Assembly (NCBI RefSeq): GCF_011045215.1
Contig: NZ_CP049201.1
Origin: Escherichia coli
GTDB taxonomy: Bacteria; Pseudomonadota; Gammaproteobacteria; Enterobacterales; Enterobacteriaceae
Length of the DNA: 64,000 bases
Strand: one strand, 5' to 3'
The translations under genes were made by a program, and so were the position numbers. The first letter of the stretch is position 1; the number at the start of each line of letters is the position of its first letter. Shown here one piece after another: positions 8,676 through 63,220 of this stretch. The notes beneath the pieces are model-generated. The model did no database searches. It worked only from the letters and a program-made list of their open reading frames with translations, and was not told the DNA's origin.

Positions 8676-9929
8676 ATGCTGGAACAAATGGGCATTGCCG
8701 CGAAGCAAGCCTCGTATAAATTAGCGCAACTCTCCAGCCGCGAAAAAAATCGCGTGCTGGAAAAAATCGCCGATGAACTGGAAGCACAAAGCGAAATCAT
8801 CCTCAACGCTAACGCCCAGGATGTTGCTGACGCGCGAGCCAATGGCCTTAGCGAAGCGATGCTTGACCGTCTGGCACTGACGCCCGCACGGCTGAAAGGC
8901 ATTGCCGACGATGTACGTCAGGTGTGCAACCTCGCCGATCCGGTGGGGCAGGTAATCGATGGCGGCGTACTGGACAGCGGCCTGCGTCTTGAGCGTCGTC
9001 GCGTACCGCTGGGGGTTATTGGCGTGATTTATGAAGCGCGCCCGAACGTGACGGTTGATGTCGCTTCGCTGTGCCTGAAAACCGGTAATGCGGTGATCCT
9101 GCGTGGTGGCAAAGAAACCTGTCGCACTAACGCGGCAACGGTAGCGGTGATTCAGGACGCCCTGAAATCCTGTGGCTTACCGGCGGGTGCCGTGCAGGCG
9201 ATTGATAATCCTGACCGTGCGCTGGTCAGTGAAATGCTGCGTATGGATAAATACATCGACATGCTGATCCCGCGCGGCGGGGCTGGTTTGCATAAACTGT
9301 GCCGCGAACAGTCGACGATCCCGGTGATCACAGGTGGTATAGGCGTATGCCATATTTACGTTGATGAAAGTGCAGAGATCGCTGAAGCCCTGAAAGTAAT
9401 CGTCAATGCGAAAACTCAGCGTCCGAGCACATGTAATACGGTAGAAACGTTGCTGGTGAATAAAAACATCGCCGATAGCTTCCTGCCCGTATTAAGCAAA
9501 CAAATGGCGGAAAGCGGCGTGACATTACACGCAGATGCAGCTGCGCTGACACAGTTGCAGGCAGGCCCCGCGAAGGTGGTGGCGGTTAAAGCCGAAGAGT
9601 ATGACGATGAGTTTCTGTCATTAGATTTGAACGTCAAAATCGTCAGCGATCTTGACGATGCCATCGCCCATATTCGTGAACACGGCACGCAACACTCCGA
9701 TGCGATCCTGACCCGCGATATGCGCAACGCCCAGCGTTTTGTTAACGAAGTGGATTCGTCCGCTGTTTACGTTAACGCCTCTACGCGTTTTACCGACGGC
9801 GGCCAGTTTGGACTGGGTGCGGAAGTGGCGGTAAGCACACAAAAACTCCACGCGCGTGGCCCAATGGGGCTGGAAGCACTGACCACTTACAAGTGGATCG
9901 GCATTGGTGATTACACCATTCGTGCGTAA
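8676..9929 (+). CDS. proA: Gamma-glutamyl phosphate reductase
   Basis: 417 aa ORF immediately after proB, aldehyde dehydrogenase-like. Confidence 0.9.
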
Positions 9930-10043: not shown

Positions 10044-10119
10044 GCCGATATAGCTCAGTTGGTAGAGCAGCGCATTCGTAATGCGAAGGTCGTAGGTTCG
10101 ACTCCTATTATCGGCACCA
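10044..10119 (+). tRNA. thrW: tRNA-Thr (anticodon CGT)
   Basis: 76 nt GCCGATATAGCTCAGTTGGTAGAGCAGCGCATTCGTAATGCG...TCGGCACCA with anticodon loop tCGTa. Confidence 0.9.
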
Positions 10120-18015: not shown

Positions 18016-18506
18016 GCATGAGTCTTTTGAATGACGTTCAGAAATTCATTGAAGCCCATCCGGGCTGTACTTCCGGAGATATTGCGGATGCTTTTGCCGG
18101 TTACTCACGGCAGCGCGTTCTGCAGTCAGCAAGCAAGTTACGTCAGAGTGGGCGTGTGGCTCACCGTTGTGAAGGAGATACACGCAGACATTTCCCGCGC
18201 CTGACTGAGAGAGCGCAGGAACCGGAACCACAACCAGTTCGTGAAACCAGACCTGTGCGCAATTTCTATGTCGGCACTAACGATCCCCGTGTGATTTTGT
18301 GCCTGACCCGCCAGGCGGAAGAACTGGAGTCCAGGGGCTTATACCGTCGTGCTGCAACCGTGTGGATGGCGGCATTCCGTGAAAGCCACTCCCAGCCAGA
18401 ACGAAACAATTTTCTGGCGCGTCGTGAGCGGTGCTTACGGAAAAGCAGCAAGCGCGCTGCATCGGGTGAAGAGTGGTATCTGTCAGGGAATTACGTGGGG
18501 GCTTAA
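18012..18506 (+). CDS. Hypothetical phage protein (possible PerC-like C-terminal region)
   Basis: 164 aa ORF; weak motif resemblance only. Confidence 0.35.
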   Translation: MSMSLLNDVQKFIEAHPGCTSGDIADAFAGYSRQRVLQSASKLRQSGRVAHRCEGDTRRHFPRLTERAQEPEPQPVRETRPVRNFYVGTNDPRVILCLTRQAEELESRGLYRRAATVWMAAFRESHSQPERNNFLARRERCLRKSSKRAASGEEWYLSGNYVGA

Positions 18507-19159
18507 TGAGTAATAAATATTGCCAGGCGCTGGTGGAACTGCGGAACAAACCAGCCCATGAACTGAAGGAAGTGGGCGATCAGTGGCGCACGCCGGACAA
18601 CATTTTCTGGGGAATTAACACCCTGTTTGGCCCGTTTGTTCTGGATCTGTTCACTGACGGTGATAACGCCAAATGTGCCGCGTATTACACGGCGGAAGAC
18701 AACGCGCTGGCGCATGACTGGTCAGAACGTCTTGCGGAGCTTAAAGGTGCTGCCTTTGGTAATCCCCCATACAGCCGCGCCAGTCAGCATGAGGGGCAAT
18801 ACATCACCGGCATGCGTTACATCATGAAACATGCCAGTGCCATGCGTGATAAGGGCGGGCGCTATGTTTTCCTGATCAAAGCTGCCACCAGCGAAGTGTG
18901 GTGGCCGGAAGATGCAGATCATATTGCTTTTATTCGCGGGCGTATTGGTTTTGAACTGCCTGTCTGGTTTATCCCGAAAGACGAGAAGCAGGTACCGACA
19001 GGAGCTTTTTTCGCTGGTGCTATTGCTGTTTTTGACAAGACCTGGAAGGGACCGGCAATCAGCTACATCGGGCGCGATGAACTTGAGGCATGTGGTGAGG
19101 CGTTTCTGGCGCAGGTTCGCCAGCAGGCGGAAAAACTGGTCAGGGAGATGGCGGCATGA
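18506..19159 (+). CDS. Phage DNA N6-adenine methyltransferase (Dam-like)
   Basis: NPPY motif (FGNPPYS); TAATG start overlap with previous gene. Confidence 0.7.
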   Translation: MSNKYCQALVELRNKPAHELKEVGDQWRTPDNIFWGINTLFGPFVLDLFTDGDNAKCAAYYTAEDNALAHDWSERLAELKGAAFGNPPYSRASQHEGQYITGMRYIMKHASAMRDKGGRYVFLIKAATSEVWWPEDADHIAFIRGRIGFELPVWFIPKDEKQVPTGAFFAGAIAVFDKTWKGPAISYIGRDELEACGEAFLAQVRQQAEKLVREMAA

Positions 19160-47993: not shown

Positions 47994-48570
47994 CTTTATC
48001 AATGACTTATCTCCCGACTTCCCGTCTTGCTTTTCCTAAACAGAACAATCGTAGAATATTCTTGAAGGGTTAGATCGTCACTGTTTTCTGTTCGATACTG
48101 TGACATTCAGCACTTGATTCGCTATGGATCTGACAGGAAGGTTTTGAGCGAAAATCTGCAGTTATTCAGTCGTTTTCTTATCGGTCACCATTATTCTTTT
48201 AGACATTGATCCTACAAAGCTGCCGCAAAGTTGGTGGTGGGAACTGAAGTTGCGTAGAGAAGGGGTCAATACCCGGAGGCAAACATGGGCTGGCAAAAGT
48301 GTAGCGGTATTAGGCGCAGCTATTTAGCCTAGTTATGTTTTATGAAAACTTGATATCATATAAGTGTCTTACTTATTGGCTGTAAATAAGTTTTTCTAAG
48401 GAATTGTTTCTTGAGTATCATTTGTAACTGTAACGGAATTTATAATCCTTTGCTTTATTGTTACGGTATTTTTATCACACCCTATTTTTAGTGGTTTTTA
48501 TACTGAAGTTTGGCAAAGTGAACTTTATATACATATACTTCATCCTGTTTCAGTTAAATTGGGTGGATGA

Positions 48571-49315
48571 TATGGCAACTACATGTTCAGTTATATTGAT
48601 TTTGGAGTCCTTTGATGTTTATTTCGGAAAAGAGAGTGTGTTTCTGGAGAGAGGTTCATCTGTACTTGTCGACTCTAGCTCTAGAGATTTTTTCCTGACA
48701 TATCCTGAAAGAGTGATAGTGGCGGATTTTGGCGCTGAGTTTATTAGTCGCTATTTGAAAGCTAATAACTTAAGGGATATTTCTGATTGTAGGGAATATC
48801 CATCTTATTTAAAAATAAACTTTGCTGACTTCAGTTTAATTAAAGGATTAATTAGTTGGGCTAATCACTGTGCTGAATACATAGAAATTTTTGATGAGTC
48901 TATTGCTTTTACATGTCTCTCTGCATTTTCTTCTGAAAAACAATTTGGAGTATTTCTGTTTGGATGTTTGAAAAGCACAGGGGCTAAAGTTAAAACGATT
49001 ATTCATACGGATTTATCTGCACCATGGCGTCTTAAGGATATATCATCAAGATTATATCTCAGCGAAAGTTTACTAAAGAGGAAATTGAAAGAAGAGGGGG
49101 TATCATTCAGTAAGATCATACTTGATGAGAGGATGCAAATGGCTGAATATTTACTCAGCACTCGTTGTTATCCTATTAGTAAAGTAGCTAAGGTCTGTGG
49201 TTATGCCAGTGTCTCATACTTTACTTATGTATTTAGACGTTATTTTGGTGTTTCTCCAAGTCAATACTCTCAGAGGAGTTCAGAAAGTAAAATTCTTACT
49301 CACCAGGGAATCTGA
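48571..49315 (+). CDS. AraC/XylS-family transcriptional regulator (Rns/AggR/AppY-like)
   Basis: C-terminal dual-HTH pattern WRLKDISSRLYLSESLLKRKLK...ILDERM...YFGVSP; AT-rich; start uncertain. Confidence 0.65.
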
Positions 49316-49356
49316 TCATTGTTCTTGCCCCCTTATTTCCAGACAGGGGGTGTATC

Positions 49357-49722
49357 TTAAGTTAACGTTACCCGCTGACGTCGATATTCTCGCGGAGAGC
49401 GATAACCCAACGCACTGTGCGGATGGTTTTCATTGTAATGTTCGATCGCCACTGCAAGATTATGCAATGCCGTTCTTACATTCGGTTTCGGCATGAACGC
49501 GATGTAGTCTTCCTTCATCGTTTTCACGAACCTTTCTGCAATTCCATTACTCTGAGGACTGCTGATTGCCGTTGTGCAGGGCTCCAGATTCAACTCTCTG
49601 GCGAACTGCCGTGTTTCATGCGCTCTATACGCTGAACCGTTATCTGTCAGCCACTGGATGGACTGTTCCGGTACTTTATCGCCAAAGCGTTTTTCTATCG
49701 CTCCTAACATGACATCCTGCAC
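49357..49722 (-). pseudogene. IS3-family transposase, C-terminal fragment (IS2-like)
   Basis: rve integrase-core motif WLTDNGS...[16 protein letters not shown]; only the last ~120 aa present. Confidence 0.6.
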
Positions 49723-50069
49723 TGTCGCTTTATCGTAACCTCCCGTGCTTGCGGCCCAGTCTATGGCTTCACGATCGCAACAGTCCAGGGCGATTCATCT
49801 GGGCCAATCCTCGCTCATAACAGGCATTCACTTCAGTCATGGCAGAAAGGTATGCATGCTGGAGAAGTCGTGAAAGAAAAGAAGACTGCTGCGCCGTTTG
49901 TCGTCACGTTTATCTTCATTGGCTATGCAAGTCGTAATACAAGGTGGGACAAAACTGAGACACATAAGGCCTCGCAATGGCTTGCAAGGCTTTACATGTT
50001 TTGATGTGGTGGGACGTGTGAGCGCAGTGTTGATGGGGTAATGCTTTGAATTAGAAGCGGATTCTTATA

Positions 50070-50118
50070 ATTCGTAATGCGAAGGTCGTAGGTTCGACTC
50101 CTATTATCGGCACCATTT
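50070..50118. repeat. attR of prophage / attL of downstream element: second copy of 49-bp tRNA-Thr 3-prime segment
   Basis: Exact repeat of 10074-10122. Confidence 0.75.
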
Positions 50119-50280
50119 CAACGTCTTTTCCCGTCTATTAAAATCCAAAAAACCCGCATATACTCTAGCTTTGAGCGCCCCCGATAGTGTTTTAACGTCT
50201 ATCAATATCTCCTAAAATCCACGTCTTTTGGGGGTATATTCGGGGGTATATGCTGTGTGGGCTACTGGAGATACCCCCAA

Positions 50281-51471
50281 ATGAAACTAAATGCCCGTCA
50301 GGTCGATACGGCCAAACCGAAAGAAAAACCCTATAAACTGGCCGATGGTGGTGGGCTTTATCTGCTTGTTAATCCCAATGGTTCCCGGTACTGGCGTTTA
50401 AAGTACCGGGTAGCCGGAAAAGAAAAGCTGTTGGCGCTGGGGGTATATCCCGATGTAACCCTGGCTGATGCCAGGGCGAAACGAGATGAGGCCAAAAGGG
50501 GTATGGCTGGGGGGATCGACCCGAACGAAGCGAAGCGGGAAGAAAAATTGAACCGCGAAGCGCAAATCAAAAACACCTTCGAAGAAATCGCCAGAGAGTG
50601 GCATACAGAACGGCAGAAGAAATGGTCTGAGGGGTACGCCTCGGACATTCTGGAAGCATTCAGTAAAGACATATTCCCTTGGATTGGAAAACGCCCCATC
50701 ACGGAAATAAAGCCCCTTGATTTGCTGAATACGCTTAAACGCATCGAGAATAGGGGAGCGACTGAAAAGGCCCGTAAGGTTCGCCAGTGGTGCGGGGAGG
50801 TCTGGAAGTATGCGATCGTTACCGCCCGCGCAGAATATAACCCCGCCCCTGATCTATCTGTGGCTATGGAAGGACACGAAGGGGAGCACTTCCCCCATCT
50901 GGAAGCCGAAGAGTTACCCGAATTTTTCCAGACGCTGGCGACGGCAAAAAGTAACGTTCAGGTTATTTTGGGGCTGCGTCTGCTTATTCTTGTGGGGTTA
51001 CGTCCGGTTGAATTACGCGCGGCCCCGTGGTCAGAGATTGATTTTGATAATGCCTTGTGGGAGATCCCCAAAGAGCGAATGAAGAAAAGACGTCCGCACG
51101 TTGTCCCGCTTTCTCGCCAGGCTATGGTTATTCTCGGGCAATTAAAAGAGTTGTCGGGCCGCAATCCTTTCATTTTTCCGGGCCGGAACGACCCGCGAAA
51201 GCCAATGAGTGAAGGAGCAATTAATCAGCTAATAAAGCGACTCGGGTATAAGGGCAAAGCTTGCGGGCATGGTTTCCGACATACCATGAGCACAATTTTG
51301 TATGAGAAAGGGTATAACACCGAATGGATCGAAACCCAGCTTGCACATGTTGATAAAAATACCATCCGTGGCACATATAATCATGCCCGCTATCTGGATG
51401 GACGCCGGGAAATGCTTCAATGGTATGCCGACTATATGGAATCGCTGGCGAGTGGCAGGGTAAAAGATTAG
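50281..51471 (+). CDS. P4-type integrase (tyrosine recombinase)
   Basis: N-terminal MKLNARQVDTAKPKEKPYKLADGGGLYL typical of P4-family integrases; catalytic HGFRHT... Confidence 0.85.
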   Translation: MKLNARQVDTAKPKEKPYKLADGGGLYLLVNPNGSRYWRLKYRVAGKEKLLALGVYPDVTLADARAKRDEAKRGMAGGIDPNEAKREEKLNREAQIKNTFEEIAREWHTERQKKWSEGYASDILEAFSKDIFPWIGKRPITEIKPLDLLNTLKRIENRGATEKARKVRQWCGEVWKYAIVTARAEYNPAPDLSVAMEGHEGEHFPHLEAEELPEFFQTLATAKSNVQVILGLRLLILVGLRPVELRAAPWSEIDFDNALWEIPKERMKKRRPHVVPLSRQAMVILGQLKELSGRNPFIFPGRNDPRKPMSEGAINQLIKRLGYKGKACGHGFRHTMSTILYEKGYNTEWIETQLAHVDKNTIRGTYNHARYLDGRREMLQWYADYMESLASGRVKD

Positions 51472-52020
51472 AGAAGGTCTAAGACGGGAATACCGCTAAA
51501 TTAGATGTTAGGCGTGGACACTCAGCATCCACGCTTAAACTTTTTATTATCATTTTCAATGAATTATGATTTTGGAAATTTTATAAAAAACACCAAGATT
51601 ACTAATCTATTGATTAATATGAAATATTTCTTTTTTTGATTATTAATTGTGCTCTTGATTGTTGTTTTTATGGTGTTAATTTATAAAAATCTTATTTATA
51701 GGAATTAACATTATATAGTTGGCACTTTTTGCTAAAATCTGTTTTTATTGTGTTTTATTTTTATTTCATTTTTGTTGTTGTTTGTTTGATTTTTAGTGTC
51801 TTTATATCTGGCTAATTGATTTCACTCAAACCATAAATCCTTTCAGAGGCTTCTAGAGTCTTCCTGAGGCTTAAATTGACTTAACTAAAAGTCAAGCCCC
51901 ACATCCCACATACATCTTTTTGACATGCACTTATGGCGTGAATAACAATGACTTCATCCAATCTACAGGCATCCTATAAAGTCAATGTCTGTATATAGAA
52001 AGATATTACATAACGTTTGA

Positions 52021-52260
52021 ATGTTAATAGCGGGTGTGAATATGAGAAATGATGCAATGCAGCTTTTAAACCAGGGAAAAAGATTGATCCGCCTGCCTGA
52101 AGTTATGATGCTTACGGGGCGGTGTCGCGCCAGTATTTATAAAGATATCAATGCAAATGTCTTTCCAAAGCCGATTAAAACCGGCCCGCGTTCTGTCGCA
52201 TGGGTTGAGGGTGAGATCAGCGACTGGATCGACAACAAAATCAAAGAGCGCAAAGTGTAA
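52021..52260 (+). CDS. AlpA-family transcriptional regulator
   Basis: RLIRLPEVMMLTGRCRASIYKDI...FPKPIK.GPRSVAWVEGEISDWI; start may be 52057. Confidence 0.7.
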   Translation: MLIAGVNMRNDAMQLLNQGKRLIRLPEVMMLTGRCRASIYKDINANVFPKPIKTGPRSVAWVEGEISDWIDNKIKERKV

Positions 52261-52459
52261 ATCTGATTTTATTCAGAGATGAATATGATTTATTTGAATG
52301 CTAAGGATTTTGTGTATTCTTTTTGTTGTAAATACTCGTAGCATGGGGAGTTGGCAGTATTTATTCAGTATTAGGTTAAGTAGTGATAAAATACCAGGTA
52401 ATGCCGGTTTATGCAGTGTTTAATATATTTGTTGCTGGCGAAAATTTACGGAAAATTAA

Positions 52460-53332
52460 ATGAACATTACTGATATTATCAGCCATCGCGTATATCGTGA
52501 TGCGGATCTTGCTGTCATTAATAACACGGCATTTATTCAGCCTTATGACGGTTGTCACCGTGGGTTGTATGAAATGCGCGTTATTGAACTTTATCGCCTG
52601 AATAAAATGATGCACCTTACCCACGAATATAAATCTATTTCCGGGGAAAGCGTAGGCATTCCGGCGACTAAAGAGGAACTGTTTACACTGGTTAATAAAG
52701 GGCATGAACTTTGCCAGTCTGAACGGGAAAAGCTGGCGGCACTTGAAGCAGAATTGCAGCGTCTGCCAAGCCCGGCTGTAATTCCTGCGCCGCAGACGAT
52801 TAAAGAAGCACAGCAGGCCCGTAAATCACTAGAAGATGAAAGATACAGACTGCATCACGCAGCAATTAAAAATCAAGTCAAAGCACAGCAGGAAGAGTTA
52901 TCCATCAGACAAAACATTCTGGAATTGCTCGCGCCGGTTATTGATGTGTTGTTGGCCGTGGAAGATGTGGAACTGCTCGATCTGCGCCGTTCCCTGCCTA
53001 AGTCATCCCTCGATGCTAAGGCATTCAAAAAGGCGATTTCTGAAATTGAGTGTGCTGACCTTGCCTGGCAGAAAATGGATAAACTGGAGATTGCCCTTAA
53101 CAAGGTGGTGAACAACTGCACATATCGCCCGGAAGGAAGCATTAATCCCCGTTTTGTTAACCCTCTTAATGAAGATAAGCGGGAACGCGCCGAAATATCA
53201 CGCGATTATTACAGCTCTGAAATGGCCTTTATTCATACGGTGATGAGTGCAGATGAATATTTAAATTATATGTTGCCGATCCGTCACCAGCAGCGCGCGC
53301 AACGACTCACATTAGAAAGAAATATCAACTAA
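52460..53332 (+). CDS. Coiled-coil protein (possible scaffold or capsid-size factor)
   Basis: 290 aa with long predicted helical/coiled-coil central region; immediately upstream of capsid-like gene. Confidence 0.4.
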   Translation: MNITDIISHRVYRDADLAVINNTAFIQPYDGCHRGLYEMRVIELYRLNKMMHLTHEYKSISGESVGIPATKEELFTLVNKGHELCQSEREKLAALEAELQRLPSPAVIPAPQTIKEAQQARKSLEDERYRLHHAAIKNQVKAQQEELSIRQNILELLAPVIDVLLAVEDVELLDLRRSLPKSSLDAKAFKKAISEIECADLAWQKMDKLEIALNKVVNNCTYRPEGSINPRFVNPLNEDKRERAEISRDYYSSEMAFIHTVMSADEYLNYMLPIRHQQRAQRLTLERNIN

Positions 53333-53341
53333 GGAAGAATT

Positions 53342-54349
53342 ATGTCTTATGTAACACCAGATTATTTAACGCAGTATCACGAAAACCTGATTAAGTCTTT
53401 TAATATTAAATATAAAAACGAAGATACGGGGTATTTCACCATATCACAGCCGGAAAAAGCATCTCCGGATGCATGGGGATGTTCCACGCTTGATGTTAAA
53501 GGCTCGTCCTGGCTGATTGATAATATTTCATTACTGGACATTATCGGTGCGGATGGCACGACGATCACCATCGGTGATGGTTCCCTTTATACAGGCCGTG
53601 CAAAGGAAGGTCGCTTTCATAAGAAACTAAAAACCAACGGAACACCTTTTTTATTATCAGAAACGGATTCCTGCGCCTCATTGACTTATGAAGAAATGGC
53701 GGTAATGGCAAACGCGAAAAATTTCAGTAATGAAATGATCATTTTTTTCAAGAAGGCCGTGGTGCGGGATATGCTCCGTATTGGATTTAACGGCAAGATG
53801 ATTGCCGAAAATACCAACCCGGAACAATATAAAAACGGCGAAGATATCAATATTGGCTGGCACTCGCTGGCAAAAACATTCAATAACGGTTCACAAATTA
53901 TTTCTGATGCTTTCGCACTGGGGAAAGGCGGTGATTTTGCCGATGTTCACGATCTGGCTGATTGCCTCATCACGTCAAAAATCCCCGAAGGTCAGCGCGA
54001 AGATCCGGGCCTTGTGGTGATGGTTGGCGCGCAACTTGCCGCCCGCGAACGACTGAAACTGTTCAACATGGCCGATCAACCACTGACGCTGACGGCGGGG
54101 GATATGCTGACAAGCAGTGTCGCCGGTCGCTTTGCTTTTATCCCGCCGTTTATGCCGGGTAAGCGCCTGGCTGTTACGACGCTGAAAAATTTGCAGATCC
54201 TGACGCTGAAACACAGCCAACGCTACCGCGCGGAGGATATCCCGCAACGAGGTGTTTATGAGCATGGCTATTTACGTGAGGAAGGTTACGCGCTGGGGGA
54301 TGGCTATCTTTACGCGGCCAGCGATGAGAACGCCGTAACGCTGGTTTAA
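53342..54349 (+). CDS. P2 gpN-family major capsid-like protein
   Basis: Motifs GFNG, GKGGDFA and EDPGLVVMVGAQLAA resemble recalled P2 gpN; needs search confirmation. Confidence 0.5.
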   Translation: MSYVTPDYLTQYHENLIKSFNIKYKNEDTGYFTISQPEKASPDAWGCSTLDVKGSSWLIDNISLLDIIGADGTTITIGDGSLYTGRAKEGRFHKKLKTNGTPFLLSETDSCASLTYEEMAVMANAKNFSNEMIIFFKKAVVRDMLRIGFNGKMIAENTNPEQYKNGEDINIGWHSLAKTFNNGSQIISDAFALGKGGDFADVHDLADCLITSKIPEGQREDPGLVVMVGAQLAARERLKLFNMADQPLTLTAGDMLTSSVAGRFAFIPPFMPGKRLAVTTLKNLQILTLKHSQRYRAEDIPQRGVYEHGYLREEGYALGDGYLYAASDENAVTLV

Positions 54350-54561
54350 GTATCGAGTACAGCCAGCTTTGACAGTGATGGCCAGATAAAAGAAAACCCT
54401 CTCACCGGAACGAACAAGAAACGATAAGAGGGTTTATCAGGAAGATGATTCTACGTGATGAATTATACCGAGAAACAACCGATGCTTACCAGCAAAAACG
54501 CGTCACTGTTTGTGCAGCTGGCACCGTCCGATCTGACGGTGTTTTCCGGAATGGTAAGGAG

Positions 54562-54753
54562 CTATTCCTTTGCCTTTTTGCGCTGTTCTGCTTTCAGCTT
54601 GCGCCCGCAGGCATCCAGCACCCAAGCGGAAAAACTTGAACCCGGATTATCGACTTTTTCGCGTTCTACGCAGGCATCAATTTCTGCGATCATTTCATGC
54701 GGGAAGCGTATTCCCTTGTATGTTGTTTTGCTGTTTATGTGGTTTTTAGTCAT
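54562..54753 (-). CDS. Putative ribbon-helix-helix repressor
   Basis: 64 aa; start placed at MTKNH; divergent from operator array. Confidence 0.45.
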   Translation of the reverse strand: MTKNHINSKTTYKGIRFPHEMIAEIDACVEREKVDNPGSSFSAWVLDACGRKLKAEQRKKAKE

Positions 54754-54769
54754 GCTGGAAACTCTTAAG

Positions 54770-54870
54770 TGTTTAAACATCAGTAAAGATACAGTAAAGC
54801 CGGACATAACAAAACTGTTTAAACAAAATCTGTTGACTTGTTTAAACACTCAGCATAATGTGTTTAAACA
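54770..54870. promoter_or_regulatory. Operator array: four copies of palindrome TGTTTAAACA overlapping a rightward promoter
   Basis: Copies at 54770, 54816, 54839, 54861; TTGACT at 54834. Confidence 0.55.
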
Positions 54871-54960
54871 GTTTGCTACGTTGCAAACTGAAAAAACGAA
54901 GCCCGGCAGTGTTGACGCACTAACCGGGCCTCTGACCAACACGTTATTAGGAGTAACGCT

Positions 54961-55164
54961 ATGGCTAGCCATCAGTGTAACCAAACTCGCCCTAAAAATC
55001 GCCTATTTCTCTTTCTCGCGGTATCACGGGCCGACATGCAGGACAAACCACACCGCGAACAAATCACCGCGTACAGCGAACAGGAAGCCCGTTCCATGCT
55101 GGCCGGTCGCTTTATCCTCTGCTTTGCTGGCCGTCTGCCGGTTCAGGAGGTGCACCATGTTTAA
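54961..55164 (+). CDS. Hypothetical small protein
   Basis: 67 aa ORF with AGGAG RBS. Confidence 0.4.
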   Translation: MASHQCNQTRPKNRLFLFLAVSRADMQDKPHREQITAYSEQEARSMLAGRFILCFAGRLPVQEVHHV

Positions 55165-55405
55165 CCCACTGGACAACCGCAAAGCGGCGGCGCTTAACCC
55201 GTTCCACGATGACTGTTACGATCCGCCAGCCTTTATTAAACCGGGTTCAAAAGTAGTGGTTGAAATTGATTCCCGGGAAATGGAGGTCGCTATTCTAGCC
55301 GCTTATGACTACGGACTGGACGCGCTGAACGACGATGGCCGGGAAGAGCTTAACCGCTTAATTGCTGACCTGAAAGACAAGATAACGGAGGCGCGGTATG
55401 CATAA
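55157..55405 (+). CDS. Hypothetical small protein
   Basis: 82 aa with CAGGAGG RBS; C-terminal part of a longer ORF-track entry. Confidence 0.4.
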   Translation: MFNPLDNRKAAALNPFHDDCYDPPAFIKPGSKVVVEIDSREMEVAILAAYDYGLDALNDDGREELNRLIADLKDKITEARYA

Positions 55406-55823
55406 TCTGCTTAATTCACCGTTGCCAGTGTCTATGGATCTCTTTCAGGCTGGCGAGATGTGCGGGCATTTTGTCGCGCGGTTAACGGATGAAAGTTGTG
55501 TTGACGAGACTGAACGCGTCGCACTTTGCGGACGTCTGGCTTTTGCCCTGCGTTCTCTTTCATCTCTTTGTGATACAGACTATCCATCGCATATCCAGGC
55601 GCAATTAACCGCGACTGCTATTCCTGCTCCCTGCGTACCTGATGAGTGGATCGACGCGACGATCATGACGGGCTATTGCACCGCCTTAAATGATGCGCTG
55701 CTTAGTCGCTCCCTTCGTATGGACGTTGAAACACAATTACGCTGGCTTTTGCATGACATGATTAATTTACTTGTCAGATATCTGAAACAGCCTTGTATTA
55801 AGGCGGGAGTAGATCATGTCTGA
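55398..55823 (+). CDS. Hypothetical protein
   Basis: 141 aa ORF in operon string. Confidence 0.4.
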   Translation: MHNLLNSPLPVSMDLFQAGEMCGHFVARLTDESCVDETERVALCGRLAFALRSLSSLCDTDYPSHIQAQLTATAIPAPCVPDEWIDATIMTGYCTALNDALLSRSLRMDVETQLRWLLHDMINLLVRYLKQPCIKAGVDHV

Positions 55824-56214
55824 AATTATGCTCACACCGTTTCACGTTGACCGCCATTTTTACGATCTGGTTTACGGTGCTTCATTTTTTGCGGATGCAT
55901 TACCTGCAATGAATGATATCAAGCAGCAGCGGCTTTATTGTCGATTATTGCAATTAAATCTGGTTGTTTTATTTGAAAAACGGTCGCGGGATATTCCCCC
56001 AATTCAGTCGAGTAAAATAAAAATCGCTGATGAGGTTATATTTCTTAATGTCGATAATATTTATCATGCGCTTTCCCTGACTGCCGGGCTGATAAGTCAG
56101 GATATCAGTAAGGGGATGGAAAAAGAACTGGCTGAATATATCAGGGATATTATTAGTATTATTTTTAATGAAATGCGAATGCAGATGGTTGATTATGATC
56201 CATATGAAATGTGA
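55816..56214 (+). CDS. Hypothetical protein
   Basis: 132 aa ORF in operon string. Confidence 0.4.
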   Translation: MSEIMLTPFHVDRHFYDLVYGASFFADALPAMNDIKQQRLYCRLLQLNLVVLFEKRSRDIPPIQSSKIKIADEVIFLNVDNIYHALSLTAGLISQDISKGMEKELAEYIRDIISIIFNEMRMQMVDYDPYEM

Positions 56215-56310
56215 GACGAATAAAACAATAATCGATTTATAAGAACTGAAAAATATTTAATTATAACCGTATTTTAACGGGGGATAATTACGCCCCTGTA
56301 AGGAAAATAT

Positions 56311-56580
56311 ATGTCTGATTTGAATACCATTGCTGTTAATAGTGCTGAAAAATATCTTAGCCTTGAGTGCTTCCATAAACTCAACCGCGCAAGGAATGTT
56401 TCATTCCAGATGCATTTACAGATCCGTCAGTGTGAGATAAACGGCCTGCCACTTTTATGGATTCCAGATATTTTCAGCTATATCAGCGAAGACATATCCG
56501 CCGTTCTGGAAGAAGCCAAAGTACTTGGCCTTTGCGATAAGTTCACAGGCGAAGCCCGGATCGGTCAGGTCAGTCTTTAA
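56311..56580 (+). CDS. Hypothetical protein
   Basis: 89 aa ORF upstream of primase. Confidence 0.35.
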   Translation: MSDLNTIAVNSAEKYLSLECFHKLNRARNVSFQMHLQIRQCEINGLPLLWIPDIFSYISEDISAVLEEAKVLGLCDKFTGEARIGQVSL

Positions 56581-56613
56581 TTTTTTGTATTCCGCGCCGC
56601 CCGCTGCGGCGCA

Positions 56614-59376
56614 TTGTCTTACCCATTAATAAAGGTCATACCGATGCAAGGTAAAAAAGTTTCACAGACAGCAGGACGCGCGGCGGGCCAGTGGGAAAAT
56701 ATTCTTGAACACCTGGGGATTACTGTTCCTGCGGGTGGTCTTCATGGCCCCTGCCCGATCTGCGGCGGTAAAGATCGTTTTCGCTTTGATAATAAAAAAG
56801 GGCGTGGAACCTGGTTCTGCAACCAGTGCGGCCACGGTGACGGGCTGGATCTGGTCAAACTGGCGCTTTCGCTGGACACCGGGCCAGCCGCTGATCGAGT
56901 TGCTGAATTACTTCCGGCCCTTCCTCCGCCTGCGGTCATGCAGCCTGCCAGAAAAGAAGCCAGTGACGAAGGTCGCCCACATGACTACTGGCAACGCCTC
57001 TTTGCCCGTACTCAGCCGGGGGAAAGCCCTTACCTTACGGCGCGGGGGCTGACAGGTTTTGAACTGCCGCTGACCGTTCAGGAGATGAAAACCGCTGGCG
57101 GTGTTTTTCCGGCTGGTTCGCTTTTATTACCGATCACGGACACCGAAGGACGGATGACCGGTGCACAGCTTATCGGCCCGGACAAGGTAAAAGGCTTATG
57201 TGCTGGCACCAGGAAAAAAGGGCGTTTTATCTCTGTCGGGCCGTTCCCGGAGAAAATGCCCGCGCGGATCATTATCTCGGAAGGCTTTGCCACTGCGTTA
57301 AGCGCATCCCTGCTTTCAGAGGGCTGGAGTATTGCGGCGCTGGATAAAGGCAACCTGAAAGACGTTGCGGAGCAAATCCGCCAGAAATGGCCGGACGTGC
57401 AGATCGTTATTGCCGGTGATAATGACTTTTCTGACGGTAAACCCAATCAGGGGAAAGAGTCTGCGATCAAAGCTGCACTGGCCGTTAAGGGATGGATGAC
57501 CATTCCTCCCGGACGGATCAAAGTTGACTGGGATGATTACCGCCGTGAATTTGGCCTCCAGCGCGCCCGTGACGCATTCGCGGAAGAACTGCTTAACCCG
57601 GCAGACACCGAAACGCGTTTACCGCATGGTTTCCGCCTGACGAAGGATTATCTTTGGTTTGATCGCCCGCTCAGTGACGGTAGCGAAAGCGGCCAGACTC
57701 GCCAGGTGAAGATATGTAGCCCGCTCAAAGTGACGGCCATCACCAGCGACGGCGAAGGCGGTAAATTCGGGCGTCTGCTTGAGTGGGAAGACTCCAGCGG
57801 ATTACGGCATGAATGGGCGATGCCAATGACAGTGCTTGCCGGAAGCGGTCAGGAGCTGCGGGAGGTTCTGCTTGATAACGGAATGCACTTTATCAGCGTG
57901 AACGGCGCGGCGCGTAGCTATCTGATGGAATACATTTCTAACTGTCGCCCGGTTCGCCGCGTCACCTGCGTTGAAAAAACAGGCTGGTTTAGCGGTGCGT
58001 ATGTTCTCCAGGATGAGGTGATCGGCAGCGATGCCGGATCGGTCATCCTCCAGTCTGCTATGTCGTCTAAAAATGACTTCCGGGTGAGCGGAACGGTGGC
58101 GGAATGGGCGCAACACGTCGGGCGCTATTGTGCCGGAAATTCCCGCCTGGTGTTCTGCGTCAGTCTGGCGCTGGCCGCGCCGTTACTGAATATTATTGGT
58201 GTTGGCGGCGGCGGTTATCACCTTAAGGGCGAATCCACGGACGGCAAGACAACCACAATGAAGGTAGCGGCGTCTGTCTGCGGCGGGCCTGATTTCTGGA
58301 AAACGTGGCGGGCAACCGGAAACGCGCTGGAAGGTATTGCGCTACGCCGTAATGATGCCGCCCTGATGCTGGATGAAATCAGCGAAGTTGACGGCAGAGA
58401 GGCTAGCCGGATCGCCTATATGCTGGGGAACGGGCAGGGCAAAGCAAGGGGGCGCGTTGATGGCAGCGTCCGCGATCCGGTGACCTGGACATTGCTTTAC
58501 CTGTCCACCGGGGAAATCTCTATTGCGGAACATGCCGCCGAAGCCGGAGAAAAGCGAACCGGCGCGGGTGTCGGTGTGCGTATGGTGCAAATCCCCAGCG
58601 ATACCGGAAAACATGGCGCTTTCGAAAATCTCCACGGCATGGAAGGCGGTAAAGCGTTTGCGGAATACCTTGAACAGACCTGTAAACAATATTACGGCGC
58701 GCCGTTCCGCGAATGGTTGCGCTGGCTGGCGGCAAATCTGACGGAAACCGCGAACCGGGCGCGGGCAATGAAAAAAGAGTATGAACGGACATTATTACCC
58801 GAAGATTCCGGCAAGCAGGTTGGGCGCATTGTGGATCGCTTTGCACTGTTGGCCGTTGCGGGGGAACTGGCGAGTGAAGCGGGGATCACAGGCTGGCAAC
58901 CAGGAGAAGCGTATAACGCTGCAAGAAGCTGTCTGGCGGCATGGCTTAACGATCGTGGACATGCGGCCAACCAGGAAGAAGCCGACGCGCTGGAGAAGGT
59001 GCGGCGCTTTATTACGGCCAATCAGTACACACGCTTTGCTGACTGGTATGACGAGAAAAACCGCCCGTCAAATATGGTTGGCTTTCGCCGGGTGGAGAAA
59101 GGCGGGAACGGTATTGGCATGAGCAAAAAGGAGAACAGCGGCGATACTGTTAAAGACGGGGACGCCACTAAAGAGCCGGAAACCACATTTTATATCCTGC
59201 CCAGCGGATGGAAGGAAATTTGCGGGACGTCGGACAGCGTTAAAACGGCGAGACTATGCGACGAGGCTGGATGGCTTGTAAAGGATGAAGATCGCCAGCG
59301 CCTACAACGTACAGTAAGACTACCGGAAATTGGCTTAAAGAAAGTGTATGTGTTCAGCGGCGAAGTGATCGGATAA
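56614..59376 (+). CDS. P4 alpha-like primase-helicase
   Basis: Zinc-binding CPICGG...CNQCGHGDG, TOPRIM-like IISEGFATA...AGDND, P-loop GESTDGKTT. Confidence 0.8.
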   Translation: MSYPLIKVIPMQGKKVSQTAGRAAGQWENILEHLGITVPAGGLHGPCPICGGKDRFRFDNKKGRGTWFCNQCGHGDGLDLVKLALSLDTGPAADRVAELLPALPPPAVMQPARKEASDEGRPHDYWQRLFARTQPGESPYLTARGLTGFELPLTVQEMKTAGGVFPAGSLLLPITDTEGRMTGAQLIGPDKVKGLCAGTRKKGRFISVGPFPEKMPARIIISEGFATALSASLLSEGWSIAALDKGNLKDVAEQIRQKWPDVQIVIAGDNDFSDGKPNQGKESAIKAALAVKGWMTIPPGRIKVDWDDYRREFGLQRARDAFAEELLNPADTETRLPHGFRLTKDYLWFDRPLSDGSESGQTRQVKICSPLKVTAITSDGEGGKFGRLLEWEDSSGLRHEWAMPMTVLAGSGQELREVLLDNGMHFISVNGAARSYLMEYISNCRPVRRVTCVEKTGWFSGAYVLQDEVIGSDAGSVILQSAMSSKNDFRVSGTVAEWAQHVGRYCAGNSRLVFCVSLALAAPLLNIIGVGGGGYHLKGESTDGKTTTMKVAASVCGGPDFWKTWRATGNALEGIALRRNDAALMLDEISEVDGREASRIAYMLGNGQGKARGRVDGSVRDPVTWTLLYLSTGEISIAEHAAEAGEKRTGAGVGVRMVQIPSDTGKHGAFENLHGMEGGKAFAEYLEQTCKQYYGAPFREWLRWLAANLTETANRARAMKKEYERTLLPEDSGKQVGRIVDRFALLAVAGELASEAGITGWQPGEAYNAARSCLAAWLNDRGHAANQEEADALEKVRRFITANQYTRFADWYDEKNRPSNMVGFRRVEKGGNGIGMSKKENSGDTVKDGDATKEPETTFYILPSGWKEICGTSDSVKTARLCDEAGWLVKDEDRQRLQRTVRLPEIGLKKVYVFSGEVIG

Positions 59377-59469
59377 GACCTGCTGACACCGCTATAACTA
59401 ACGGTGTTGGCCAGCTTCCGGCCCTGGAAACATAGCCAGCCAGGAAGAAGTGATCGCACGTATCATATT

Positions 59470-59690
59470 TTTTAGTGGAAACAGTGGGAACATAGGGAAC
59501 AGACTTGATTTATAAAGGTTTTATTTGTTCCCAATTACTGTTCCCATATGGTAACAGGTGGTAATGTATTTTAAATCATATGGTTATGTTGATATGCAAA
59601 GCGTTGTTCCCAGTTGTAAAAGAGAGATGGGAACAGGAAAAAGGTATAAATATCAACACTGTTACCATTGTTCCCACTGTTTCCACCATT
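59470..59690. repeat. Iteron cluster (TGTTCCCA / TGGGAACA), crr/ori-like
   Basis: At least 9 copies in both orientations directly downstream of primase. Confidence 0.6.
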
Positions 59691-59724
59691 TTTGACAATA
59701 ACAATATTTAATTTCGGGGAAAAT

Positions 59725-59741
59725 GCTTTTCCCTGGCTGGC
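59725..59741. repeat. 17-bp direct repeat GCTTTTCCCTGGCTGGC (copy 1)
   Basis: Perfect match to 62005-62021. Confidence 0.6.
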
Positions 59742-59760
59742 TAACATCAAAGGTAAAGAA

Positions 59761-60726
59761 ATGAGCATTAAGAAACGTCCTGATGGAAAATGGCTGGTAG
59801 ATATGCGGCCCGCAGGTCGTAAAGGAAAACGTATTCGCAGGGTTTTTAACAGGAAATCGGAGGCCCTGGCATTTGAGATGTATTACCTGGTCCGTTCTCA
59901 ATCGCCGGAATGGGCAACGAACTTCACAGACCGCAGATTATTAAGCGATTTGCGTAAAACATGGTGGGACCTGTTTGGACACGCCAGAAATAACGCAGAA
60001 ACTGAAAAGCGCCAGCTTGATAAAACCATCCGGCAGATGGGAGATCCACCAGTTAACCGGCTTACAATCCGCTTCATTCTGGAATTCAGAGCAGGCCGTG
60101 TTTCAGGGAAATTAAAGGCATCCACGATAAATCGCGATATGTACCGGTTATCAGGCATGTTTACCGAATTAATTAAAGCAGGTGAGTGTAAAAATAATCC
60201 GTTCCGTAGTCTTGAACCGTTAAAGGAAGAACCTTCCGCAGTAACGTTTCTGACCCACGAAGAAATTAGCATGTTACTGGAAAAACTGGAGGGAGATTCG
60301 CGTAAGCTGGCGTTACTGTGTCTTAATACTGGGGCGCGTTTCAGTGAAGCCGCGAATCTAACGGCTGAAATGGTTAACAACCGTCGTGTAACGTTTATTA
60401 AGACAAAGAACGGGAAGCAGCGGACAATACCCATTTCATCTGAACTCGAAAAGGAAATAAAAACAAAAAATTCAGGTCAACTTTTCACGGTGGATTATAA
60501 ATGGTTTTCCCGCAGGTTGAAGGCAATCAAACCGGATTTACCGGATGGACAGGCAACGCATGTATTACGACATACTTTCGCCAGTCATTTCATTATGAAT
60601 GGGGGAAATATTGTTGTATTAAAAGAGATTCTTGGACATGCCAATATTCAGCAAACTATGATTTATGCACACTTTGCGCCTGAATTTCTGGCGCAGGCTG
60701 TAACATTGAATCCATTTAGTAAGTAA
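59761..60726 (+). CDS. Tyrosine integrase (second integrase of the region)
   Basis: N-terminal MSIKKRPDGKWLVD arm-binding-like region; C-terminal HVLRHTFASH... Confidence 0.8.
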   Translation: MSIKKRPDGKWLVDMRPAGRKGKRIRRVFNRKSEALAFEMYYLVRSQSPEWATNFTDRRLLSDLRKTWWDLFGHARNNAETEKRQLDKTIRQMGDPPVNRLTIRFILEFRAGRVSGKLKASTINRDMYRLSGMFTELIKAGECKNNPFRSLEPLKEEPSAVTFLTHEEISMLLEKLEGDSRKLALLCLNTGARFSEAANLTAEMVNNRRVTFIKTKNGKQRTIPISSELEKEIKTKNSGQLFTVDYKWFSRRLKAIKPDLPDGQATHVLRHTFASHFIMNGGNIVVLKEILGHANIQQTMIYAHFAPEFLAQAVTLNPFSK

Positions 60727-60754
60727 CTGCGGATTTTCTTTTGAATGTACAAAA

Positions 60755-61012
60755 CTAACGTTGAAGTAATTCTTTCATGACCGTTTTTTGTTCCGGCGTC
60801 ATCATGTCAATCATTGTTTTTACTGCTTTATCCCCAGTCAGAGCGCTGGGGCTTAGCGTATGGGAGAACGTCATATTCATAACGAAGGTATGCCCACATT
60901 CAACATTATTACAGGCACAATACATATCAGACAGGTGGGGATGCTTGCGCACTGTCTTTTTTGTTGTTGAATTACTTCCACACTCAGGACAAACAATTTT
61001 ATGGCTGCGCAT
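60755..61012 (-). CDS. Ogr/Delta-family zinc-finger late-gene activator-like protein
   Basis: CPEC...CACNNVEC zinc-finger spacing resembling P2 Ogr; start uncertain. Confidence 0.5.
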   Translation of the reverse strand: MRSHKIVCPECGSNSTTKKTVRKHPHLSDMYCACNNVECGHTFVMNMTFSHTLSPSALTGDKAVKTMIDMMTPEQKTVMKELLQR

Positions 61013-61432
61013 AATAATCACCACTCGTAAAAGGCGCATTATTATACCACTATTTGCATTAAACAAAAAAAAGAAATTGATATAAATTATCAATAATATC
61101 ATCGTGTTATGTCATTCCATTCTTTCTTTGCTTTTAACTTAGTGTCACGCAATTTGATTTTTTTTGTTTTAATTTTCATATGGTTACGTTATTTTGATTA
61201 AAGATTGAATTTTACGATGACTGTAATTATTGAAATCCTTTTCAACTGATTGCATTTTTTTCAGTCTCAAATTTCATGTAAAACCCCGTTTAACGCCTGT
61301 TCTGGCGCTTCTTTCCTGCAATTTTCCAAACTGAAAAAATTCTCACTACGTAAACACCGTGGGCGTGCGGGTGAGCGCGGTTTTGGTCCCGCTGGCGTTT
61401 GCGTCGTAACAAGTCAGAAACATACAACCACA

Positions 61433-61450
61433 TGTACAACTAGCTGTACA
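61433..61450. promoter_or_regulatory. Putative TA operator: two TGTACA palindromes
   Basis: TGTACAactagcTGTACA upstream of yefM-like start. Confidence 0.5.
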
Positions 61451-61495
61451 TATGCAATACTTACGACGTAATAACTTGGCGGACGGAAAAACACT

Positions 61496-61741
61496 ATGCA
61501 ACACGTAAACTATACCGATGCTCGACAGCATTTAGCTGACCTGATGCAGCAGGCTAATGATGATCGTGCGCCAATCCTGGTTACGCGTAAGGGTGCTAAA
61601 AGCGTAGTAATGATCGATGCGGAAGAGTTCGCATCGATTCAGGAAACGTTACACCTGTTCAGTAACCCGGCGAACGCCGCACACATTGAAGCCAGCCTTG
61701 CATCGCTCGAACGCGGCGATTATGAGGAACTGGACATTTAA
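61496..61741 (+). CDS. YefM/Phd-family antitoxin
   Basis: 81 aa; ATGA overlap with toxin gene. Confidence 0.7.
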   Translation: MQHVNYTDARQHLADLMQQANDDRAPILVTRKGAKSVVMIDAEEFASIQETLHLFSNPANAAHIEASLASLERGDYEELDI

Positions 61742-62001
61742 TGAAAGTCAGGATATCCCCGCAGGCAAAAGGCGATCTTCAGTACTGGGCTGAGAATGAC
61801 CCAAAGACGTATAACAAGGTAATGGAGCTAATCAAATCGGCTAAGGAAAGCCCCTTCAAGGGGATAGGGAAGCCGGAGGCGCTAAAGCATCGTAAGCCGC
61901 TTTGGTCACGTCGAATCACGAAAGAACATCGCCTGGTGTATTACGTTGAGCAAGGCGATCTGTACATTGTTGCGTGTCGCTATCACTACACCACGATTTA
62001 A
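61741..62001 (+). CDS. YoeB/Txe-family toxin (mRNA interferase)
   Basis: KGKPE.LKH...WSRRIT.EHRLVY...ACRYHY motif. Confidence 0.75.
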   Translation: MKVRISPQAKGDLQYWAENDPKTYNKVMELIKSAKESPFKGIGKPEALKHRKPLWSRRITKEHRLVYYVEQGDLYIVACRYHYTTI

Positions 62002-62004
62002 ACA

Positions 62005-62021
62005 GCTTTTCCCTGGCTGGC
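62005..62021. repeat. 17-bp direct repeat GCTTTTCCCTGGCTGGC (copy 2)
   Basis: Perfect match to 59725-59741. Confidence 0.6.
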
Positions 62022-62320
62022 GGGTTTACCTTAACTTTGCCAGCACTGTTTAAACGCCCGCCGCTCTCTCCCAAATACAGTATAAAAAGCAATCAATTAT
62101 TGTGGACGTAAAAGCGCATGGGGGTACAATTGGGGGTACGTTGGTTATCCATTATGTAATAAATTCATAATAAACATGGTGTTATATTGCATGTTTAACT
62201 CTTATTATCTACCCCATATTCAAATACACCACGTTTCCTCCTGTGCCGTATTTATGCCATTGTAACCCTGGCAATTAATCAAAATACTGTTCTGACATCA
62301 GGCAATGCAGGTGCAGACAT

Positions 62321-63220
62321 TTAAGCCAATTGCTGCCGCCATTCCTTAACGTGGTCAATCAGAGCGCGGAGCTTTGGTGCAATATTGCGACGCTGTGGGA
62401 AATACAGATAGAAGCCCGGAAATTGTGGAAGAAAGTCATCAAGCAGAGATACAAGCTTACCGCTTTCAATATATGGCCTGAAAGTTTCCTGAGTGGCAAT
62501 TGTTATTCCTCCGCCGGCAAGAGCCAGCCTCAACATCAGACGCAGATCATTAGTCGTAATCTGTGGTTCAATCGCAAGGTCGAAAGCTCTCCCGTTTTCT
62601 TCAAATGGCCAGCGATAAGGCGCAACATCCGGGGATTGACGCCAGCCGATACACTTATGATTCACAAGTTCACGCGGATGAACAGGTGTGCTGTTGGCTG
62701 CGAGATAGGAGGGAGAGGCAACGACCATTTCACGCTGACTGCCGGTAAGGGGCACAGCAATCATGTCTTTTTCAATGACCTCTCCGAGCCTTACGCCAGC
62801 ATCGTAACCTGCGGCCACGATATCGAATTCCTCATCCGTGACAACAATATCAAGCGTAACGGCTGGATTGGCTGCTGCAAACGAAGCGATTAGCGGACCT
62901 GAAAGAAATTCTTCAGCTATTGACGTCACTGCGATTCTGAGAAGTCCACGTGGTACATGATCAGAAACCATCTCTTCGAACGCTGTCTCAATACCGGATA
63001 AAGGTAATGACAGCGATTTATGCAGCCGTTCTCCTGCTTCTGTCAAATTAACTGAGCGCGTGGTCCGCATTACAAGCATTGTCCCGAATGCATCTTCAAG
63101 GCGTCTTATTCCCTGACTGACCGCTGAACGGGTAACGCCCAGCCGTGCGGCGGCTTTACTGAAATTACTCTCTTCTGCTACCGCGATAAAAATGGGTAAA
63201 AGATTAAGATCGATTTTCAT
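62321..63220 (-). CDS. LysR-family transcriptional regulator
   Basis: N-terminal HTH, LysR substrate-binding-sized C-terminus; divergent from dehydrogenase gene. Confidence 0.8.
   Translation of the reverse strand: MKIDLNLLPIFIAVAEESNFSKAAARLGVTRSAVSQGIRRLEDAFGTMLVMRTTRSVNLTEAGERLHKSLSLPLSGIETAFEEMVSDHVPRGLLRIAVTSIAEEFLSGPLIASFAAANPAVTLDIVVTDEEFDIVAAGYDAGVRLGEVIEKDMIAVPLTGSQREMVVASPSYLAANSTPVHPRELVNHKCIGWRQSPDVAPYRWPFEENGRAFDLAIEPQITTNDLRLMLRLALAGGGITIATQETFRPYIESGKLVSLLDDFLPQFPGFYLYFPQRRNIAPKLRALIDHVKEWRQQLA

Follow-up and report, generated by a model that had tools for sequence, protein, structure and literature searches.

A gene-free, AT-rich spacer between int and alpA as a probable control region of alpA in a P4-like satellite of Escherichia coli

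In the Gram-negative PICIs EcCICFT073 and EcCIMP1, int is followed by alpA, whose product is a master activator, autoactivated and induced by the helper through its upstream region. In EcCICFT073, AlpA switches on its own promoter, and the inducing stimulus is the helper phage and not the SOS response (PMC6092414); a fragment of EcCIMP1 covering positions -449 to +50 of alpA gives helper-dependent induction (PMC11773190). Neither the AlpA binding sites nor the phage signal has been defined for these two elements (PMC6092414, PMC11773190). H-NS directly binds the alpA promoter of CP4So, a P4-like prophage of Shewanella oneidensis, and represses alpA 19-fold, and excision of CP4-57 in E. coli, as cited in the same study, is reportedly not under H-NS control (PMC5148205). 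For P4 itself, P2 Cox binds boxes 10-11 bp apart upstream of the promoter P_LL and activates it, the consensus of these boxes being TTAAA(G/C)NC(A/C) (PMC3936717). Moreover, excisionase-type regulators bind weakly conserved direct repeats spaced by one helical turn (PMC7498355).

The window studied here, that is the whole 64-kb stretch of E. coli DNA that was analysed, carries a satellite of about 12 kb (50091-62216) whose insertion site, at 50091-50115, duplicates the 3' end of tRNA-Thr. This duplicate is an exact repeat of the last 25 nt of the intact tRNA-Thr (CGT) gene, which occupies 10044-10119, and about 40 kb of other integrated DNA thus separate the tRNA from the satellite in a tandem arrangement. 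Fragments of IS and AraC-like genes are found just upstream of the satellite (48458-49722). Of the seven core components of P4-like satellites (PMC8628076), int, alpA, epsilon, alpha and delta are present, recognised through the Pfam families Phage_integrase, Phage_AlpA, Derepression, DUF927 with Toprim and Zn_Ribbon_Prim, and Ogr_Delta. As in EcCICFT073 and EcCIMP1, int precedes alpA, whereas the gene content here is P4-like and there is no sequence similarity to the PICIs beyond the AlpA family. The element resembles CP4So in being P4-like, integrated and equipped with alpA, but genus and element differ.

At the level of sequence homology, no match to Psu or Sid was obtained in the scanned ORFs or in the RefSeq annotation. 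Downstream of alpA, the satellite encodes a 290-aa orphan protein (52460-53332) with no Pfam or PHROG match, whose 31 clusters are all from Escherichia or Salmonella, and then its own diverged major capsid protein of the P2 family (53342-54349), with a best phage match of about 41% identity. No description of a capsid-encoding P4-like lineage without sid and psu was found by targeted full-text searches or in the surveys of P4-like satellites that were consulted. The satellite family, which encodes a capsid protein of its own and lacks sid, psu and a P2-type cos, is more unusual than the spacer to which this work is devoted.

Several other observations were made along the satellite. In type-1 alleles, an AT-rich gap of 199 bp with about 33% GC (52261-52459) separates alpA from the 290-aa gene, against 35 bp in the type-2 alleles of Salmonella. 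Few segments are less conserved than this gap (74-92% identity), and a second promoter, serving the capsid genes, might be located in it. In the interval between the ylcI-like and icd-like genes, which are divergent, TGTTGACTTGTTTAAACA at 54831-54848 has the TGT-N12-ACA form of Ogr/Delta sites. It precedes the icd-like ATG by about 45 bp and could serve the replication operon as a late promoter. Beside the ogr/delta-like gene there is a second tyrosine integrase gene of the P2-phage type (59668-60726; 352 aa, apparently intact), with 68-78% nucleotide identity to int of P2-like phages and with shorter counterparts in the relatives L001 (642 bp) and L003 (966 bp). The right end carries a Phd/YefM-YoeB toxin-antitoxin pair (61496-62001), conserved in E. 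coli relatives. Likely arm-type repeats of the integrase are present as two copies of GGGGGTATAT near attL (50231-50253) and two of GGGGGTAC near attR (62121-62141), and a degenerate attR core, CTCTTATTATCTACCCCA, lies at 62199-62216.

Between int and alpA, a gap of 570 bp is found (51472-52041, the alpA ATG being most likely at 52042). It belongs to a known kind of feature, the alpA/vis control region of satellites, and is as such an ordinary regulatory intergenic region. We think it probable that it acts in cis to keep the master regulator alpA silent as long as no helper phage is active. Twelve alleles of the spacer were compared, from E. coli, E. albertii and subspecies of S. enterica, which differ in integrase (two unrelated types, 43% identical), in AlpA (two groups, about 62%) and in primase (again two unrelated types). 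Alignments and per-segment identities of these related alleles show a spacer made of four parts, which by their sequence would be a terminator, an AT-rich core, a phased array, and a promoter with its leader. They are listed here together with the genes on either side.

50281..51471, + strand: int, P4-type tyrosine integrase gene (Pfam Arm-DNA-bind_3, Phage_int_M, Phage_integrase)
51508..51560, + strand: putative intrinsic terminator of int, with an 11-bp stem and a 9-nt loop (51508-51538), then a T-rich run
51535..51835, no strand: AT/T-rich core, of which composition and length are kept and sequence is not
51814..51884, no strand: array of helically phased 10-bp units (TRF period 10; direct-repeat search)
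51876..51895, no strand: inverted repeat TTGACTT-N6-AAGTCAA, its right arm inside the near-invariant AAAAGTCAA
51920..51949, + strand: predicted sigma-70 promoter of alpA, with -35 TTGACA at 51920-51925 and -10 TAACAA/AACAAT at 51943-51949
51957..52041, + strand: predicted leader (5' UTR) of alpA, conserved among type-1 alleles
52042..52260, + strand: alpA, 72 aa (Pfam Phage_AlpA, 1.2e-18)

The initial annotation described this region as about 550 bp of extremely AT-rich, T-tract-laden spacer (51472-52020; 549 bp at 29.1% GC). A GC scan of the 64-kb window and counts of the tracts confirmed the AT-rich and T-tract-laden character, and the gap is real, but it reaches 52041 and the AT richness is not uniform: extreme values are limited to about 51535-51835, and the final 200 bp or so, which bear the conserved motifs, have 35-37% GC. 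Over 51540-51800 the GC content is 19.5%, and the 260 bp at 51535-51794, with 18.5%, are the lowest of all 260-bp stretches in the window, the next-lowest having 24.2% and the window as a whole 49.6%. Such a stretch has the size and composition of H-NS-silenced acquired DNA (at least 200 bp well above host AT). On the + strand, T makes up 53% of the core, with 12 T tracts and 5 A tracts of at least 4 nt; TpA steps amount to 11.1 per 100 bp versus 4.6.

Immediately downstream of int, which is also annotated in RefSeq at a locus 99.8% identical, the hairpin that had been noticed on first reading proved to be real. An inverted-repeat search placed its arms at 51508-51518 and 51528-51538, and it folds at -15.1 kcal/mol (z -3.3) with the T-run CTTTTTATTATCATTTT directly after it. 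The terminator scan missed it, plausibly because its 9-nt loop lies outside the 3-8 loop limit of the scan. Among the alleles, the 5' arm GGYGTGGACA is invariant and the 3' arm exists in two forms, …TCCACGC… and …GTGGACAYGCC/CACACCTG, either of which can pair with that 5' arm; in three type-1 alleles, among which both forms are represented, the hairpin has folding energies between -15 and -18 kcal/mol (z from -2.8 to -3.8), with -17.7 for L003 and -17.1 for L008. A stable hairpin and a T-run thus follow the stop codon, as in Rho-independent terminators, and the structure has been kept despite sequence change. The block formed by GGYGTGGACA and the T-run is common even to elements with unrelated integrases. 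Judging from these alignments, the hairpin is an intrinsic terminator of int that goes with the spacer and not with the integrase module.

At the other end of the spacer, the promoter of alpA suspected in the initial annotation can be proposed at a precise position. The promoter scan retrieved TTGACA-N18-AACAAT with 10 of 12 matches, a predicted promoter with a consensus -35 and a poor -10 (TAACAA/AACAAT). All 12 alleles, whatever their integrase type or AlpA group, retain TTTTGAC(A/T) and the -10 core AATAA without change, and the two hexamers are everywhere 17-18 bp apart, within the 16-18 bp of sigma-70 promoters. In type-2 alleles the -35 reads TTGACT or TTGACA and the -10 TAAAGT (TAAAAT in L023), at a spacing of 17 bp. 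Identity to L002, L008 and L010 is 94-98% for the promoter and 91-100% for the leader, above the level of third codon positions; the leader is 36 nt shorter in type-2 alleles. A second inverted repeat, on either side of the predicted start site (51945-51957/51976-51988), was discarded as probably due to chance, being unconserved in L008 and L003. The start of alpA at 52042 is the one annotated in near-identical RefSeq loci, and the protein has 72 aa in all relatives; its PHROG annotation is "excisionase and transcriptional regulator" and it is 39% identical to P4 Vis over 59 aa.

Upstream of the promoter lies the array of 10-bp units, of which the clearest are AGAGGCTTCT, AGAGTCTTCC, TGAGGCTTAA and ATTGACTTAA at 51845-51884; a less distinct copy is present at 51814-51830. 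Autocorrelation at lag 10 gave z values of 2.2-5.7 in each of six divergent alleles (mean 3.6), with a second peak at lag 20, and among the Salmonella alleles L005, L020 and L019 the number of units changes in exact 10-bp steps (2, 3 and 4 copies). The array is closed by AAAAGTCAA, whose GTCAA core is invariant and stands about 22-25 bp upstream of the -35 in 12 of 12 alleles. The minus-strand sequences of the units are TTAAGTCAAT, TTAAGCCTCA, GGAAGACTCT and AGAAGCCTCT. Like the Cox boxes of P4, they contain the AAG-N-C core, follow one another at this spacing and point away from the gene, alpA being on the + strand. The layout is that of a Cox array, with a spacing of 10-11 bp, upstream of a promoter of the alpA/vis family and facing away from it. 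The phased units score 6/8 against the P2 Cox-box consensus, and the 7/8 matches of the spacer are four single sites, two of them near the promoter (51886 and 51976), the former being TAAAAGTCA (51886-51894) within the AAAAGTCAA motif. A strict P2 Cox-box array was therefore rejected, as the units match only 6-7 of 8 positions.

This pattern is that of small winged-helix excisionases and regulators, and the array is therefore, by analogy, likely to be a docking site for AlpA (autoactivation) and/or for a Cox-like protein of the helper. The unit consensus, RAGNCTT, does not visibly vary with the AlpA group; the recognition regions of the two groups resemble each other, which fits a common consensus, and AlpA and a helper-encoded binder are not separable on these grounds. 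In the att arms, only short AAG-containing resemblances to the units were found, too weak to be used. Weak direct repeats 10-11 bp apart beside a promoter are also known for 186 Apl at pR-pL, lambda Xis and P2 Cox at Pc (PMC7498355, PMC3936717). Those arrays overlap the promoters and repress them, whereas the array of the spacer occupies about -73 to -142, where activator sites are more usually found.

A close counterpart is the region upstream of vis in P4. There too, a gene of the AlpA/Vis family stands behind about 550 bp of gene-free, partly AT-rich DNA (27-29% GC), and in both elements tandem 10-bp units lie about 150-200 bp upstream of the ATG and point away from the gene. In P4 (L014, NC_001609) these units are annotated as "ori type 2 repeats", three 10-bp repeats at 9176-9205, 146-175 bp upstream of the vis ATG. 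On the opposite strand they read TTAAAGTCA, TTAAAGCCA and TTAAAGCAA and score 8/8, 8/8 and 7/8 against the Cox-box consensus; spaced by 10 bp, they are the three best Cox-box matches upstream of vis. These P4 repeats served as a control for the spacer, where an array of at least six Cox-box copies was not found, and their sequence suggests that they probably belong to the activation of P_LL rather than to the origin. Differences are also evident. The P4 units are near-perfect P2 Cox boxes and those of the spacer match 6-7 of 8 positions; P_LL has a TGT-N12-ACA Ogr/Delta site, whereas no such late-promoter motif was found in the spacer; the P4 region carries the alpha-binding iterons of the origin, which are elsewhere in our satellite; and its left neighbour is sid in P4 and int here. 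In architecture, the spacer is equivalent to the P4 region upstream of vis.

No motif conserved across all alleles was found in the AT-rich core, and a search for repeated k-mers that might be iterons of the core returned only low-complexity AT words, none of them conserved. The identity of the core to L008 and L010 is 82%, and third codon positions in the neighbouring genes give 72-95%; the core changes at a silent-site rate, so its sequence is unconstrained while its composition and length are kept. Identity to L003 falls to 61%, in contrast to 92-95% at third positions of the flanking genes of L003, which points to a replacement of the whole cassette from the hairpin through alpA. The initial annotation had also expected such DNA to be curved, and this received little backing. 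The 10-11-bp periodicity of AA/TT does not exceed that of dinucleotide shuffles (78-239 of 300 reach it), so the A/T tracts are not helically phased. With a Bolshoy-type wedge model, which behaved correctly on synthetic phased and unphased A-tract controls, the mean predicted curvature of the core ranks at the 67th-81st percentile of the window. Local predicted bends attain the 97th-99.9th percentile, at different positions in different alleles, and the window holds, elsewhere, a dozen curvature peaks stronger than those of the spacer. Strong intrinsic curvature of the spacer is not supported, because the tracts are unphased.

H-NS is known to select on base composition alone. Matches to TCGATAAATT, a high-affinity H-NS motif (PMC2094087), number four in the spacer with up to two mismatches, or 7 per kb versus 1.3 per kb in the window; this density is about five times that of the window, yet not above composition-matched shuffles. 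By analogy with CP4So, silencing of the AT-rich core by H-NS is plausible, and we infer it, together with the identity of the binders of the array, from the composition and the layout described above.

The most serious rival to a regulatory role of the whole gap, although an unlikely one in our opinion, is that only the terminator and the promoter-proximal 200 bp or so are functional, the core being filler that drifted towards AT through mutation bias in the absence of constraint. The core evolves at least at the rate of third codon positions, a rate also expected of DNA without function; alleles have been exchanged in their entirety, no motif is common to all alleles and the H-NS motif counts are those of shuffles. 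Against this, a length of 473-574 bp and a gene-free state are kept in 12 alleles of Escherichia and Salmonella, and the core is deleted in none of them. The estimated mutational equilibrium of enterobacteria is about 30% GC or higher. The lowest 200-bp GC of each of the 12 alleles is 17-27%, far under typical enterobacterial non-coding DNA.

Other explanations bear on what the gap may once have held. The proximity of int had suggested a decayed cargo site, comparable to the int-psu defence hotspot of canonical P4-like satellites. In canonical P4-like elements, variable defence genes do adjoin int (PMC9122126; PMC8628076), and a different thrW satellite, that of strain EC5, encodes a 265-aa protein in the interval from int to its HTH gene. 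In the present family, however, none of the 12 alleles has variable cargo after int: no member has a gene at the int–alpA position, ORF remnants are lacking, and the length of the spacer is kept, not ragged. Moreover, the spacer DNA has no match in phages, and in the E. coli genomes, where it was found in 3 of 5,426 complete genomes (two in near mode, three in distant mode), all matches are this element alone. A decayed cargo site is thus quite improbable.

The counterpart in P4 raises the question of a replication origin, since the annotated P4 ori fills the equivalent AT-rich region and includes the three 10-bp repeats. We hold it very improbable that the spacer is a homologous origin of the satellite. 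Those P4 repeats appear to be Cox boxes, and primase-type iterons with the sequence TGTTCCCA are located at 59425-59686 and not in the spacer, where no iteron cluster of the P4 origin type was found. Six of these iterons are perfect, and 11-12 are counted with up to one mismatch; they occur in both orientations and flank an AT-rich stretch right after the primase gene. L003, which has an unrelated primase type, carries other iterons, GGTTACAA in 12 copies, at the equivalent position (18082-18663), so that the iterons co-vary with the primase, whereas no such correspondence with the primase type is seen for the spacer alleles.

No better founded is the possibility that the spacer is a packaging (cos/pac) site. 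The P4 cos is integrase-proximal, our satellite has no recognisable P2/P4 cos elsewhere, and the conserved block shared by elements with unrelated integrases could be taken for such a site. A terminator maintained through alternative pairings is, however, a sufficient explanation of that block, the core sequence is unconserved, and there is no similarity to phage DNA. The P2/P4 cos 19-mer GGCGAGGCGGGGAAAGCAC is absent from the whole window at up to three mismatches, and nothing in the satellite (50000-62400) resembles the sequences that flank the P2/P4 cos.

Least likely of all is a missed small protein gene or small RNA: the longest ORF of the spacer, of 44 aa (51505-51639), is shortened to 23 aa in the nearest alleles and missing from the rest, divergent alleles share no ORF of at least 20 aa, Pfam and Rfam searches of the spacer gave no match and the core is unconserved, so that the initial annotation was right in seeing no credible ORF, and the comparison with homologous satellites that it had called for, now carried out, found no intact conserved gene overlooked in any of the 12 alleles.

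The anatomy of the spacer, its conservation pattern and its lack of genes, all observed directly, can be combined with the systems described above into a scheme for the control of alpA. The Rho-independent terminator would stop the transcription of int and thereby insulate alpA. The AT-rich core, of about 300 bp, would be a sequence-independent insulator and a likely platform for silencers such as H-NS. The 10-bp array, with its units on one face of the helix and ending in AAAAGTCAA about 25 bp upstream of the -35, would dock AlpA and/or a Cox-like protein of the helper, and the conserved TTGACA promoter with its weak -10, followed by the leader, would then drive alpA. More specifically, and only as a tentative proposal that is further from assured than the regulatory role itself, the spacer might be a two-input switch, in which the core recruits H-NS/StpA, so that a promoter with a strong -35 is kept off, and AlpA or a Cox-like protein of the helper, forming a filament from the RAGNCTT units onwards, counters the silencing.

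To conclude, AlpA is the master switch of Gram-negative satellites, and the spacer offers a compact and directly testable candidate for its operator. If the two-input switch were true, the array would be the first defined operator of the AlpA family in a satellite, and it would open a way towards the helper-phage signal that turns on alpA.
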